From positions 1-37,772 of the IMG/VR virus record IMGVR_UViG_2690316076_000005: a stretch of 37,772 bases of DNA; one strand, given 5' to 3'. Shown piece after piece: positions 1 to 37,772 of the stretch. The position numbers and the translations under genes are program-made. Numbering within the stretch: position 1 is the stretch's first letter; every line of letters begins with the position of its first letter. The notes below the pieces were generated by a model. That model ran no database searches and was not told the origin of the DNA. It worked only from the letters and a program-made list of their open reading frames with translations. The stretch comes from a virus (Duplodnaviria > Heunggongvirae > Uroviricota > Caudoviricetes).

Positions 1-20
1 CACTGTTTATCCATACAGTT
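1..20 (+). promoter_or_regulatory. LexA (SOS) box 1 upstream of dinI-like gene
   Basis: cactgtttatccatacagtt carries CTGT-N8-ACAG at 3-18, matching the LexA box core. Confidence 0.55.
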
Positions 21-28
21 AAAAATAA

Positions 29-48
29 TACTGTATACAAACACAGTA
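29..48 (+). promoter_or_regulatory. LexA (SOS) box 2, near-consensus
   Basis: tactgtatacaaacacagta versus consensus TACTGTATATATATACAGTA; lies 13 nt upstream of the ATG and just before the SD gaggg (51-55). Confidence 0.75.
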
Positions 49-61
49 TAGAGGGACTTTT

Positions 62-310
62 ATGCGTATTGAAATCTGCATAGCCAAAGAAAAAATGACT
101 AAAATGCCAACCGGTGCTGTGGATGCGTTAAAGGAAGAATTAACCCGACGCATCAGTAAACGTTATGACGATGTAGAGGTGATCGTAAAAGCCACCAGCA
201 ACGATGGCCTTTCTGTTACACGCACCGCAGATAAGGATTCTGCAAAAACTTTTGTTCAGGAGACTCTGAAAGATACCTGGGAATCTGCTGACGAGTGGTT
301 TGTTCACTAA
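62..310 (+). CDS. dinI: DinI-family SOS-inducible protein homolog
   Basis: 82 aa; MRIE...IAK N-terminus and C-terminal [17 protein letters not shown] closely match E. coli DinI (ETWESADDWFV); ATG with SD; two LexA boxes upstream. Confidence 0.85.
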
Positions 311-453
311 TTAACACGTAAAATCGGTAACGGCTGGAAATCATTCAATAATCGCACTATCGAAAGTTCGCCAGCCAGCCGCAGCACGTTCTTGCATACG
401 ACGTGGCTGCGGCTTCCAACATTAGACAAATAACTCTTTAAATTGCTTTTAAA

Positions 454-639
454 TTATTTCGTTTGAATGCCAGTAACAGGAAATCGTTTATATAGGGTTG
501 ATAGCCCAACGTTATAGATACGTGCAACATAACGCCGTGATTTCCCTGCCGCTATGAGCGCTCCCATCTGTTGCCACTGCTCGTCGCTAAACTTCGGTCT
601 ACGCCCACCAATCCGGCCTTTGGATCTGGCAATAGCCAA
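454..639 (-). pseudogene. C-terminal remnant of a Gin/Pin/Hin-family DNA invertase (HTH domain only)
   Basis: GRIGGRRPKF...IYNVGLSTLYKRFP matches the C-terminal DNA-binding domain of serine invertases; the track M is a TTG codon, so this is an internal segment; the catalytic N-terminal domain is absent and the fragment abuts the tfa stop. Confidence 0.6.
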
Positions 640-644
640 ACCAG

Positions 645-1013
645 CTAAAGTTCCGGGATGACAGGCCAGTTAACATGCTCAGGGTCGGTTGTTACATCAA
701 CAGCCTTAACCTGATTCTTATATAAAAGCCACGCCGAAAGTTTAGCTCTGTTGGCATCGCTGATTTCACCCAGCATCAGCTCTGTGCGCCAGTCGAGCAT
801 AATTGCATCAGCGGCGGACAGTAATCGCTGTCGCTCATTTTCAGCAGCCTGGATGAGTTGTTCATGAGTCGGTGGGGGATTAATAATTGCCATAGCCTCA
901 CTTCTGGTGATTGGCACAAGCCCTTCTTTGATAAAAGCATCCTGTGTGCCATACGCATCGTAGGCATATACGACGTTATTTTCATCTTTGTAATACTTCA
1001 TCATTGTTATCAT
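645..1013 (-). CDS. tail fiber assembly protein (Tfa)
   Basis: 122 aa; [19 protein letters not shown]... is the typical Tfa N-terminus; directly follows the fiber gene with a 4-nt overlap. Confidence 0.75.
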
Positions 1014-25363: not shown

Positions 25364-25753
25364 TCAGGCGGCTGCACCCGCCGTTTTCTTGTACTTACTG
25401 ATAGTGATCTCGACCTTCCCTTTCGGGATAACCGGTCCCCACTCCACCAGCATTCTTTTCACCTGTCTGTCGTCTTCCCACACACCCGCGTGGGTCAGGG
25501 CGTCAAACAGCGCCTTGTTATAGTTGTCCAGATCGCGGATCCGGTTATCCGGAGGAAACAACACGATCTCCACTGAAGCAGGTGCCGACGTTGGTTTTGG
25601 CAGACGACGTAACTGCTCAACTATTGCTGCGCACGCCGCGCTCTGAAATTTTCGCCCCGCCGCGCTTATCAGGCTCTTACCAGCAAATTCCCCTTTGTTG
25701 GGGTGTCGCCAGTACGAGTTCACGCTGGGCGGGAAAGGCAGGATCAGCTTCAT
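25364..25753 (-). CDS. rusA: RusA-family Holliday junction resolvase
   Basis: 129 aa; PPSVNSYWRH...DLDNYNKALFDALTHAGVWEDDRQV matches RusA motifs. Confidence 0.85.
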   Translation of the reverse strand: MKLILPFPPSVNSYWRHPNKGEFAGKSLISAAGRKFQSAACAAIVEQLRRLPKPTSAPASVEIVLFPPDNRIRDLDNYNKALFDALTHAGVWEDDRQVKRMLVEWGPVIPKGKVEITISKYKKTAGAAA

Positions 25754-26076
25754 ACTTTCAGGCCTCTCTCATGTAACCAGTGGGCTGCACGCAGCCTGGC
25801 GTTTTCCTCACCGGCAAGCAGTGAGCGGATAATCCCGACCGCCTCGCTGTCGTCGTCCTTCACCGCGGTATGAAGAGTGATACCCCGGGCCACGCCACGC
25901 TTTATCGTGATGACGCCTTTTTTCTCCAGTGCGCGAAGATGTTCCACCGCTGCATTCACTGAACGGTATCCCAGCATGGTTGCCACCTCCTGATTGGTTG
26001 GCGGGAAGCCACGTTCTTTCTGGTAAGAAATCAGCATATCCAGCACCTGCTGCTGGCATTGAGTTAACGTCGTCAT
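25750..26076 (-). CDS. LexA DNA-binding-domain-like protein lacking the S24 peptidase domain
   Basis: 108 aa; LTQCQQQVLDMLISYQKERGFPPTNQEVATMLGYRSVNAAVEHLRALEKKGVI aligns along its length with the LexA N-terminal winged helix; no Ser/Lys protease domain; ATGA overlap with the upstream methylase gene. Confidence 0.65.
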   Translation of the reverse strand: MTTLTQCQQQVLDMLISYQKERGFPPTNQEVATMLGYRSVNAAVEHLRALEKKGVITIKRGVARGITLHTAVKDDDSEAVGIIRSLLAGEENARLRAAHWLHERGLKV

Positions 26077-29455: not shown

Positions 29456-30148
29456 ATGAACATAGGAAATCGAGTCAGACAACTTCGCCAGGCGAAGAAC
29501 ATGAAAATCGCCGATCTCGCTGAAGCAATAGGAGTGGATGCGGCGAATATCTCGCGCCTCGAAACAGGTAAGCAGAAACAATTCACTGAACAAGCCCTGA
29601 GTAATATTGCCAGGAGCTTAGGTGTTGATATTGCTGATCTCTTTACCTCAGACCTCAAAAGTAATACTGTATGTAAAAACAGTATTAGTGAGGATGTTGC
29701 GCAGGTGAAGGATGTATTCCGTATTGAAATGCTGGATGTCAGTGCCAGTGCGGGAAATGGCCTTATCCAGGGCGGTGATGTCATTGATGTGATTCATGCC
29801 ATTGAATACAGAACTGATAATGCTGTATCGATGTTTGGTGGACGACCAGCAAATCACATTAAAGTTATCAACGTTCGTGGGGACAGTATGTGTCCAACCA
29901 TTGAGCCAGGAGATCTCATCTTCGTTGATATCAGTATCAATCAGTTTGATGGGGATGGTATATATGTATTTGGTTTTGATGATAAAATTTACGTCAAACG
30001 ACTGCAAATGATACCTGATAAACTGCTGGTAATTTCTGATAATCAGATTTACCGCGAATGGGGAATTACCAGCGAAAACGAACACCGGTTTATGGTCTTT
30101 GGAAAGGTCTTAATCAGTCAGTCACAGACCCTTAAGCGACACAATTAA
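29456..30148 (+). CDS. CI-type repressor (HTH plus S24 LexA-like autopeptidase domain)
   Basis: 230 aa; N-terminal HTH; C-terminal VRGDSMCPTIEPGDLIFVD and later K typical of S24 peptidases. Confidence 0.9.
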   Translation: MNIGNRVRQLRQAKNMKIADLAEAIGVDAANISRLETGKQKQFTEQALSNIARSLGVDIADLFTSDLKSNTVCKNSISEDVAQVKDVFRIEMLDVSASAGNGLIQGGDVIDVIHAIEYRTDNAVSMFGGRPANHIKVINVRGDSMCPTIEPGDLIFVDISINQFDGDGIYVFGFDDKIYVKRLQMIPDKLLVISDNQIYREWGITSENEHRFMVFGKVLISQSQTLKRHN

Positions 30149-36783: not shown

Positions 36784-37203
36784 TTACTCATCATCAATAG
36801 ATGATACGCAATATTTATTTTTAAATTTAAGGTTCTTTGGCGTAACTTCATCAGAGATATCAAAACCGTCCAGAATTCTATTGAATGTAGCTTCTGGCAT
36901 ATCATCATGAACAGAAATCTCACCCGATCGCAGCTTTCTAACCATGTTATCCACTCGCCAAATTATAGCTTCAGCGTAAACAACATAACTTGGATGCTTG
37001 ATAAAGCGATGATCACCAGAATTCAAGACGCAAGACGGATCGTGGGGGACACCATCCTTGATACTAGAAATATTAACAACTAAAACACAATAACAATCGT
37101 TAACGGGGTAATAAACAGGATCATTACAAATCACATGAAGATGATTGCATGGTCCAGTTGGGGCAAGCACAGTTCCTTTCCTGTATGGCTGATAATCCGT
37201 CAT
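36784..37203 (-). CDS. unrecognised 139-aa Cys/His-rich protein, candidate toxin/effector partner
   Basis: ATG overlaps the stop of the Panacea-like gene (ATGA); AT-rich; C19/H21/H23/C26/C37/C39 cluster; no motif recognised. Confidence 0.5.
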   Translation of the reverse strand: MTDYQPYRKGTVLAPTGPCNHLHVICNDPVYYPVNDCYCVLVVNISSIKDGVPHDPSCVLNSGDHRFIKHPSYVVYAEAIIWRVDNMVRKLRSGEISVHDDMPEATFNRILDGFDISDEVTPKNLKFKNKYCVSSIDDE

Positions 37204-37772
37204 GATAATTGCAAAGAAAATTCCTTAAGTTTCTGAGATTCTTCCATTTTGCCAATTATGCGATTAGCCTCATCCTCGCTTTTACCCTCACTGATCAGCA
37301 TTTCTTTCAGGTCTATAGGCTTACGAGAATTGCCAGGATCGTGCCACTCTGGACAAACGCTTTCTAAATGCGTCATATTTGCGAGATCAAATCGGTTCAT
37401 ATGCCCATACCGAGAATAGATTTCATCTAAAATCCGGATATCTGCACGACTCAATTCATCAAAGACCTCGTCTGCATCCATTTCCCTCGGATCTGAACGC
37501 AACGATACATTATGCCCGTTCGTCTCTATCAAGTTGTACCAGTAGTCACCAATGCCTTCAGCCTTACCGCGAATCAAGTTCAGCGTATTCGACATGACTG
37601 GTCCAAATTTCATAGAGTAAAGGCTATCTTCGCCGATCATCCTGCCATGCTTCAAAATCGACTGGCGGTTAGACAGATAGAGCAGCTTCATCAATTTCAG
37701 ATATGCCATGCGCCCACCTCTCTTAAGAAGTAGGTATGCAGCCATTTGAGCTACTTTTTCTTCGCAAAACAT
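37200..37772 (-). CDS. Panacea-domain (DUF4065, SocA-like) protein, candidate antitoxin
   Basis: YLKLMKLLYLSNR...SLYSMKFGPV resembles the DUF4065 core (KLQKLLY...W.YGPV); ATG is the last codon of the window, so the 5-prime end may be truncated. Confidence 0.6.
   Translation of the reverse strand: MFCEEKVAQMAAYLLLKRGGRMAYLKLMKLLYLSNRQSILKHGRMIGEDSLYSMKFGPVMSNTLNLIRGKAEGIGDYWYNLIETNGHNVSLRSDPREMDADEVFDELSRADIRILDEIYSRYGHMNRFDLANMTHLESVCPEWHDPGNSRKPIDLKEMLISEGKSEDEANRIIGKMEESQKLKEFSLQLS

Follow-up and report, generated by a model that had tools for sequence, protein, structure and literature searches.

A dinI-like gene under two predicted LexA operators near the left end of an E. coli prophage, and its possible bearing on prophage induction

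Does a prophage that carries its own DinI homologue under predicted SOS control use it to tune its own induction? The question is raised by the left end of the window, by which is meant the whole stretch of DNA analysed here (37,772 nucleotides, IMG/VR record IMGVR_UViG_2690316076_000005). The window carries an E. coli prophage integrated at dusA, a hybrid whose contractile tail is Mu-like, whose head is of the HK97 type and whose control region is lambdoid. The original prediction, made from the sequence alone, placed a dinI homologue under two tandem LexA boxes at the border of the prophage, and proposed that its product modulates RecA and, through RecA, the cleavage of the prophage repressor.

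The gene lies near the border of the prophage but not exactly at it, as had been supposed, since the integrase gene and attL are found further to the left. The loci of E. coli EcPF16 and of the phages mEp460 and SKA5, which are nearly identical to this one, carry a tyrosine integrase of 365 aa next to dusA; base 1 of the window falls one base past its stop codon. The dusA-type integrase gene (1.1 kb) and attL are thereby placed to the left of the dinI-like gene, beyond the edge of the window, and the dinI-like gene is the second gene from attL, after the integrase. The cassette to which it belongs has the dusA-type integrase on one side and the end of the tail-fibre operon on the other. The coordinates of its features are collected in Table 1.

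Table 1. Features of the dinI-like cassette, with the prophage repressor for context, and the grounds on which each was placed
Feature	Position in window	Strand	Basis
-35 hexamer TTGACA (predicted)	-3 to 2; only the last two bases (1..2) inside the window	+	promoter scan of a 99.4%-identical locus (L001)
Candidate LexA operator, box 1, CACTGTTTATCCATACAGTT	1..20; core CTGT-N8-ACAG at 3-18	+	heterology-type score 6.28
-10 region TAAAAAT (predicted)	20..26	+	TAAAAA (spacer of 17 nt) or AAAAAT (spacer of 18 nt)
Candidate LexA operator, box 2, TACTGTATACAAACACAGTA	29..48; core at 31-46	+	near consensus, score 4.91
Shine-Dalgarno GAGGGA	51..56	+	5 nt before ATG, read from sequence
dinI-like coding sequence, 82 aa plus stop	62..310	+	Pfam, PDB and PHROG matches
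3' untranslated region, strongly conserved in relatives	311..376	+	no ORF; predicted small stem of 332-337 with 371-376
Stem-loop closing the cassette, 14-pair stem with one bulge	377..414	+	fold and covariation
CI-type prophage repressor (context, outside the cassette)	29456..30148	+	HTH and Peptidase_S24, 5.9e-19

That a DinI homologue directly follows the two boxes was borne out by searches of Pfam, the PDB and PHROG. The product of the gene matches the Pfam family DinI (PF06183) over profile positions 1-63 of 63, scoring 70.9 bits (E = 1.1e-19) where the curated cut-off is 24.2. It matches E. coli DinI (1GHH/7YWA) over its full length at 46% identity (E = 3.7e-13), and PHROG 189, ‘RecA filament binding protein DinI’, at 5.7e-31. 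An AlphaFold model (pLDDT 74) has strands at residues 2-8, 39-45 and 51-55 and helices at residues 19-31 and 59-80; the top Foldseek matches of this model are 7YWA_A and 1GHH (TM 0.75-0.78, E = 8e-6), with the next match at E = 0.03. The product is thus predicted to have the DinI fold, a single-domain alpha/beta fold of about 80 residues with a long C-terminal helix. Three minus-strand ORFs (19-153, 140-307 and 216-344) were rejected as genes, since they overlap this well-supported gene on the plus strand.

The manner in which DinI binds RecA is known from cryo-EM and mutagenesis of the E. coli proteins: a pocket formed by L13, L21, W71, W77 and F78 of DinI receives F203 of RecA, in loop L2 (Gao et al. 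2023, PMC9926225), while an acidic patch of E24, E69 and D76 faces K232, R243 and K245 of RecA (PMC9926225). The equivalent residues in the window protein are M15, L23, W73, W79 and F80 for the pocket and E26, D71 and E78 for the acidic patch. At these eight RecA-contact positions the alignments give five identical and three conservatively replaced residues, and the sequence of the protein offers no reason to doubt that it would bind the RecA filament.

The promoter of the gene is cut by the edge of the window, whose opening sequence is cactgtttatccatacagttaaaaataatactgtatacaaacacagtatagagggacttttATG. The first four bases of the -35 hexamer lie to the left of base 1 and include the integrase stop codon TGA (the sequence there being ...tcTTGACActgt). 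In L001, the promoter scan returned TTGACA, an 18-nt spacer and AAAAAT, with 10 of 12 matches, and TTGACA is kept in most of 28 promoter variants as well as in diverged paralogues. Box 1 fills the spacer between the -35 and the -10; it is similar to the operators of sulA and ftsK, and its half-sites are kept across promoter variants and paralogues. The AT-rich block between the two boxes is retained in all relatives. Box 2 begins about 5 bases past the -10, over the predicted start site, and its end lies 13 nt before the ATG. The same promoter had been annotated by the authors of the mEp460 sequence. A second promoter-like site, inside the ORF (69-96), was dismissed as a chance match, the scanned kilobase holding two sites against a mean of 2.1 in shuffles.

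Both of the CTGT-N8-ACAG boxes originally described are present, with their cores at the positions given in Table 1, and the second is indeed near consensus: taken as a 20-mer it has three mismatches against the LexA consensus, and 0.00 such matches were found in shuffles. The second box had been said to overlap the promoter, which is roughly correct; more fully, box 1 lies in the spacer and box 2 over the start site, while the -35 is beyond the window.

The strength of the two boxes was estimated with a heterology-index-type matrix made from a list of 25 E. coli operators, the dinI site of which was checked against sequence (locus L093). Scored in this way, the window has exactly three strong LexA sites, namely one at 29665-29684 (3.57), box 2 (4.91) and box 1 (6.28), and the fourth-best site scores 14.97. 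Sites scoring 8 or less had a mean of 0.015 in 200 Markov simulations, and the scores of the two boxes fall within the range of 1.9-11.7 spanned by the 25 known operators of the list. Cores of the form CTGT-N8-ACAG number three in the whole 37.8-kb window against 0.39 expected from shuffles. Two operators of credible strength, as judged from these scores, are thus predicted to overlap the core promoter of the dinI-like gene.

The arrangement is widespread. An identical or nearly identical protein, annotated as ‘DinI-like family protein’, is found in hundreds of genomes, and the promoter variants, 28 in number, keep both operators together with the -35 and the -10. Of the 58 loci with enough upstream DNA, 51 have the same integrase, its end lying 61-68 nt from the ATG of the dinI-like gene; the other seven come from Shigella and some E. 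coli, and in them IS elements and ipaH genes surround the cassette. These latter loci are prophage remnants in which the promoter and boxes are still intact, and the cassette is also intact in degraded prophages. At 67-76% identity, the paralogues P0108, P0048 and P0069 of E. coli and Salmonella form the outermost gene of other lambdoid prophages. They are convergent with tail-fibre genes, and their host neighbours are a sensor-kinase/LytTR response-regulator pair, a release-factor-3-type GTPase gene and an Asp-type tRNA-synthetase/isochorismatase pair. Every one of the 67-76% paralogues has TTGACA, and the distance to the ATG is 40-42 nt for box 1 and 13-14 nt for box 2, although the sequences of the boxes differ.

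Locus searches with the single protein and with an alignment (A3) returned almost only near-identical copies; the diversity of relatives came from a contig search by encoded protein and from a scan by DNA pattern. For the latter, IMG/VR was scanned with the pattern TTGACACTGT-N8-ACAG-N8-16-CTGT-N8-ACAG, which occurs in at least 120 contigs. In at least 114 of the 120 contigs listed, the pattern is followed, at no more than 45 nt, by the start of an intact ORF of the DinI family, 79-91 aa long. Among these IMG/VR matches is a second clade (MFVELVYDKRN...; Pfam DinI 3.8e-23), whose identity to the window protein is just 31% and whose promoter is a 46-nt version of the same one. Since the two-operator promoter is found in at least 114 of the 120 listed contigs, the 31% clade included, it is a family trait and not a peculiarity of the window prophage. 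By this comparison, the plan of -35, operator, -10 and operator has long accompanied the genes of the DinI family and is tightly conserved with them, and its conservation across clades with 31% identity argues that these genes have been selected for silence until deep SOS. At the sequence level, the proposal of a prophage DinI homologue under a LexA-type promoter therefore holds, the operators, the -35, the -10 and the RecA-contact residues all being conserved, and the product of the gene is very probably a LexA-repressed, RecA-binding protein of the DinI type.

No plus-strand ORF of 15 aa or longer is present between the stop codon of the dinI-like gene and the hairpin, and an Rfam search of positions 1-1200 found no family above threshold (a minus-strand match to CssrB reached 22 bits against a gathering score of 76). 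The 126-nt stretch from 305 to 430, which contains the stem-loop, has a folding z of -3.8 relative to shuffles. RNAalifold on ten sequence variants gave 13 pairs, three of them with compensatory double changes. In many relatives TTTTT follows the stem, suggesting that the stem-loop acts there as a terminator; the window allele has CTTCC, a poor T-run, and termination may for this reason be leaky or less efficient in it.

Similarity to mEp460, cdtI, 2H10 and the Stx phages runs from base 1 to about position 415 and then ends; among the more distant paralogues, similarity begins at the -35. The promoter has a GC content of 0.30 and the gene one of 0.43, compared with 0.51 for the window as a whole. 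In having its own promoter and terminator, a place outside the essential operons, a mosaic distribution and a deviant base composition, the cassette is recognisable as a ‘moron’, a predicted monocistronic unit of promoter, one gene and hairpin which has moved as a whole.

What such a cassette could do for its prophage depends on the repressor and on RecA. The repressor is of the cleavable S24 CI type, as judged from its alignment (A2), in which Ala99-Gly100, Ser144 within GDSM and Lys181 within VKRL are found. It is 52% identical to FsoR, the repressor of Fels-1; FsoR is cleaved on mitomycin C, and Fels-1 is still induced in a lexA(Ind-) background (PMC3121763). DinI and lambda CI share a groove of the RecA filament, comprising the L2 loop and K232/R243/K245, and DinI also stabilises RecA filaments, which become more numerous and longer (PMC9926225).

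From these elements a mechanism can be proposed. In the undamaged lysogen, two LexA dimers would shut the dinI-like promoter tightly, and the promoter would stay silent until LexA is deeply depleted, a behaviour common among promoters whose operators are strong or multiple. The DinI-like protein would then occupy the groove of RecA-ssDNA filaments alongside host DinI. LexA, UmuD and the repressors of the CI type use this groove too, CI being, like UmuD, a slow substrate. The net effect would most likely be that of a brake: CI self-cleavage and UmuD processing would be delayed or would need more damage, while the filaments would be stabilised, and the prophage would not be committed to lysis after transient damage.

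A braking role is preferred here because the DinI-like protein should compete with CI for the RecA groove. The sign of its effect on CI cleavage is not predictable from the sequence, because DinI also stabilises and lengthens the filaments. It may further be held against a brake that the host already has dinI, so that the prophage copy may be redundant. Non-polar deletions of the Gifsy dinI genes, the one genetic test met with in the literature searched, had no significant effect on induction (PMC3121763). As a test of the present case these deletions are indirect, because Gifsy induction uses antirepressors and not repressor cleavage, and they leave the question unsettled here because the window repressor is of the cleavable CI type. 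That the DinI-like protein brakes the induction of its own prophage is put forward tentatively, at somewhat less than an even chance. The full explanation that is considered best, an SOS-switched DinI moron cassette with a likely net braking effect on CI self-cleavage, stands about evenly balanced between right and wrong.

Among the alternatives, the one that survives best has the gene serve the lysogen: SOS-induced DinI would help the host by stabilising RecA filaments and by restraining UmuD processing and mutagenesis, with no meaningful effect on the induction of the prophage itself. Many unrelated lambdoid prophages carry a DinI-like gene at their very end, adjoining host genes, and the persistence of the cassette in decayed remnants points the same way: its survival in dead prophages is explained no less well by neutrality or a gain for the host than by a role specific to the phage. 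The Gifsy dinI deletions without an induction phenotype (PMC3121763) are also consistent with it, and a study of C. rodentium prophages lists a DinI-like gene as ‘fitness’ cargo. However, a host phenotype is not documented either, the resident dinI of the host weighs against it as well, and, the RecA groove being shared with CI, an effect on a cleavable repressor would be hard to avoid if the protein accumulates. A benefit confined to the host is possible, but on balance unlikely.

If the DinI-like protein does act on induction, its effect could also be of the opposite sign. Longer and stabilised RecA filaments might raise or prolong RecA*, speed the cleavage of CI and lock in lysis. The more numerous and longer filaments seen with DinI (PMC9926225) would favour this, as would the architecture of the promoter, which predicts expression in deep SOS only, with induction already under way. 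Yet DinI occupies the L2 loop and the K232/R243/K245 site which are needed by lambda CI, and bound DinI should exclude CI locally. Promotion of induction by the cassette is considered improbable.

The operators might, moreover, be read by a protein other than host LexA. The early-right operon of the window encodes a 108-aa protein (25750-26076) that consists of the LexA DNA-binding domain only (Pfam 2.9e-19); it shares 44% identity with the N-terminal domain of LexA, and its recognition helix reads RSVNAAVEHL, compared with RSPNAAEEHL in LexA. This protein is present, and annotated, in 60 phage records, including several with the dinI cassette; no paper characterising it was found in the literature searched.

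If this protein were the main reader of the two boxes, with or instead of host LexA, the dinI-like gene would be re-silenced in lytic growth. The LexA-like recognition helix would suit such a role, and the protein would not be able to self-cleave. It accompanies the dinI cassette in mEp460, SKA5, cdtI, 2H10, PhiR63_1 and Stx2c phages, and a LexA-homologue regulator without a protease domain is known from phage GIL01 (PMC6182141). On the other hand, the co-occurrence of the 108-aa protein with the cassette may reflect shared phage ancestry only. The N-terminal domain of LexA on its own also binds DNA weakly, and control of the cassette mainly by the phage protein is regarded as quite improbable.

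Largely refuted is the notion that the cassette is a part or remnant of a LexA-controlled antirepressor module, with an antirepressor co-expressed with DinI as the real inducer: such an arrangement is documented for Gifsy-1, -2 and -3, Fels-2, PSP3 and 186 (PMC3121763), and the PHROG 189 profile has 151 positions of which the window protein covers 71-149 only, so that the family includes longer, possibly Tum-sized proteins, but an antirepressor operon and a Tum-like fusion were both rejected, as the product has 82 aa and no N-terminal extension, no further ORF follows it before the hairpin, the cassette closes at a covarying stem-loop, and the prophage repressor is of the cleavable S24 type.

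The best LexA site of the window, TACTGTATGTAAAAACAGTA, lies inside cI, in the stretch that links the HTH to the peptidase domain. A site at the same codon (70-71) occurs in six cI genes, those of the window prophage, SfII, ST64B, Klebsiella P7641, Citrobacter phiNP and Fels-1, with protein identity down to 52%. Ten of its 11 core positions are invariant, the exception being a CCAG half-site that is also present in genuine operators, and the 30 nt flanking the operator on either side are almost entirely variable. Within the operator, Thr is always encoded by ACT and Ser always by AGT, and neighbouring third positions are fixed though the amino acids change. The site is absent from more distant CI homologues (47% identity or less), and no mention of it was found in the literature searched. 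A -35-like element (TTTACC, TTTACA or TTTTCA) is located exactly 17 nt upstream of TACTGT in cI, over a conserved Leu-Phe-Thr/Ser. An internal cI promoter is at best possible, because the -35-like element overlaps conserved residues and the -10 is weak. A minus-strand promoter using the operator was rejected, as no acceptable -35 was seen when the sequence was read by eye.

The dinI-like cassette, the operator inside cI and the LexA-domain-only protein may be three nodes of a larger timing circuit wired to the SOS response in this phage group, although this has to be called a long shot. In such a circuit, a LexA-repressed internal promoter of cI (TTTACC, 17 nt, TACTGT) could yield a C-terminal fragment of CI; alternatively, LexA bound within cI could act as a roadblock on cI transcription. 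The 108-aa protein could re-occupy the same operators during lytic growth. If the circuit were real, the level of LexA, besides the RecA*-driven cleavage of CI, would set the time at which the CI-type prophage of the window is committed, and the DinI-like protein and the CI fragment would both compete for the RecA groove.

The observation in cI and the LexA-domain-only protein seem of more interest than the dinI cassette, and the cI operator may merit a follow-up of its own. As to the preferred reading, in which the cassette acts as a brake on CI self-cleavage, the window phage, mEp460 or SKA5 would be a suitable system in which to ask whether an extra DinI sets the induction threshold. This question bears on antibiotic-triggered release of phage and toxin.

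LexA-controlled DinI homologues of prophages are already known, being widely annotated and described for Salmonella; they are annotated in thousands of enterobacterial genomes, and the gene of the window is one more example. No functional study of the E. coli clade of 82-aa prophage DinI-like proteins was found in the literature searched. In E. coli CFT073, microarrays showed the prophage dinI-like gene c0943 to move with sulA, umuD and recN (PMC2817434), and a preprint reports that ‘lexA and dinI’ were lost together with Stx prophages, giving no mechanism.

A first point of reference is the chromosomal DinI of E. coli (b1061; 1GHH, 7YWA), which belongs to the same Pfam family, has the fold predicted for the window protein and likewise has a LexA operator close to the ATG. 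Chromosomal dinI of K-12 has one operator, 19 nt from the ATG, whereas the prophage gene has two, in a promoter with a perfect -35. Unlike chromosomal DinI, the window protein has a 2-residue insertion in its N-terminal region and a different beta2-beta3 region, and it lacks the C-terminal Ser-Glu; its gene, unlike the chromosomal one, is carried on a mobile cassette.

The dinI genes of Gifsy-1, -2 and -3 resemble the window gene in being prophage-borne members of the DinI family that are LexA-repressed and induced by DNA damage, features that are observed there and predicted from sequence here (PMC3121763). In Salmonella these homologues are under LexA control, and a small antirepressor encoded downstream is the real inducer (Lemire, Figueroa-Bossi and Bossi 2011, PMC3121763). 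They are induced 4.6- to 23-fold by nalidixic acid and are listed among the SOS genes with the strongest induction (Merida-Floriano et al. 2021, PMC8072944). Gifsy dinI is the first gene of an operon with the small antirepressor and irsA, whereas the window gene stands alone; the Gifsy repressor is not cleavable, whereas that of the window prophage is of the cleavable CI type; and one operator is reported for Gifsy dinI (PMC8072944), compared with two here. Tum of coliphage 186, with its counterparts in Fels-2 and PSP3, is likewise the product of a LexA-controlled phage gene with a DinI-like segment. It has 146 aa, an N-terminal antirepressor half being fused to the DinI-like half (PMC3121763), while the 82-aa window protein has no such half.

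Essentially the same cassette is found as the DinI-like gp21 of mEp460 and in RefSeq entries (EcPF16, phage SKA5), with 97.8-100% DNA identity and the same integrase upstream. No difference in function is expected between these and the window cassette; the tail-fibre/invertase neighbourhood differs, and the invertase of the window is a truncated remnant.

Morons of lambda stand at the end of the late region, each with a promoter and a terminator of its own. The cassette is like morons of the lambda type in being an autonomous unit of promoter, gene and terminator, low in GC, placed beyond the tail-fibre genes and convergent with them, and swapped between phages. It differs in its control: the promoters of lambda morons are constitutively active, whereas that of the window carries LexA operators and is predicted to be silent in the lysogen.

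The promoter of the dinI-like gene follows a plan in which TTGACA is succeeded by CTGT-N8-ACAG, a short AT-rich -10 element and a second CTGT-N8-ACAG (window -3 to 46). Among the 120 IMG/VR contigs listed by a DNA-pattern scan for this arrangement (L195-L314), it precedes DinI-family genes almost exclusively, such a gene following in at least 114. These contigs include a DinI clade just 31% identical to the window protein, in which the promoter version spans 46 nt. Relatives conserve the dinI-like gene's 3' untranslated region (311-376) more strongly than the hairpin downstream of it. An extra small stem is predicted here, in which 332-337 pairs with 371-376; neither an open reading frame nor an Rfam family was detected in the region.

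The dinI-like cassette and related dinI-like genes are also found in other settings. In some Salmonella genomes a 76%-identical dinI-like gene is followed by a bacteriocin gene on the same strand; in the Salmonella contigs L186-L188 (3054-5204) a large gene of the colicin/pyocin-S type carries Cloacin and Pyocin_S domains. Bacteriocins of this type are typically SOS-controlled, like dinI-like genes. Four further copies, in Shigella flexneri and E. coli (L004, L005, L007 and L052), have no integrase, lie amid IS elements and neighbour ipaH-type leucine-rich-repeat effector genes. These copies are prophage remnants that retain both operators and the dinI-like gene in intact form.

Further features of the window are collected in the table.

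Further features of the window, with coordinates and strand
Feature	Position	Strand	Remarks
LexA-operator match	29665-29684		inside cI (29456-30148, +), in the variable linker; best-scoring such match in the window
108-aa protein, LexA DNA-binding domain alone	25750-26076	-	Pfam 2.9e-19
Hin/Gin-type DNA invertase remnant	454-651	-	C-terminal HTH_7 part only
Two rightmost genes	36784-37772	-	

A candidate LexA site also lies within the prophage repressor gene cI. It occurs at the same codon in the cI genes of SfII, ST64B, Klebsiella P7641, Citrobacter phiNP and Fels-1, with protein identity within the site-sharing group falling as low as 52%, and CI genes more distant than this group lack it. 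Across relatives, synonymous and neighbouring third-codon positions at the site are fixed, which points to selection acting on the DNA. A -35-like hexamer is found on the + strand 17 nt upstream, and the site could possibly serve as an internal promoter; another possible role is that of a LexA roadblock. No mention of an intragenic LexA site in cI was found in the literature searched.

The window's three LexA operators, two at the dinI-like promoter and one within cI, might be bound by the 108-residue protein, whose gene is located in the early-right (nin-like) region. This protein is 44% identical to the N-terminal domain of LexA, has the recognition helix RSVNAAVEHL and lacks a protease domain. 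A total of 60 phage records contain it, among them mEp460, SfII, SfIV, SfV, cdtI, SKA5 and Stx2c phages.

At the right end, the start codon of a gene for a 190-residue protein with a Panacea (SocA-like antitoxin) domain coincides exactly with the end of the window. Just downstream of this gene a 139-residue protein without a Pfam match is encoded, and the two may form a toxin-antitoxin or defence pair adjoining attR.

The equivalent of the invertase remnant in E. coli EcPF16, which has a locus near-identical to the window's left end, is annotated as a pseudogene in RefSeq. Phage SKA5 carries, at the same place, an intact invertase with an invertible tail-fibre segment, whereas the invertase of the window is truncated; the window prophage has thus lost its host-range switch.
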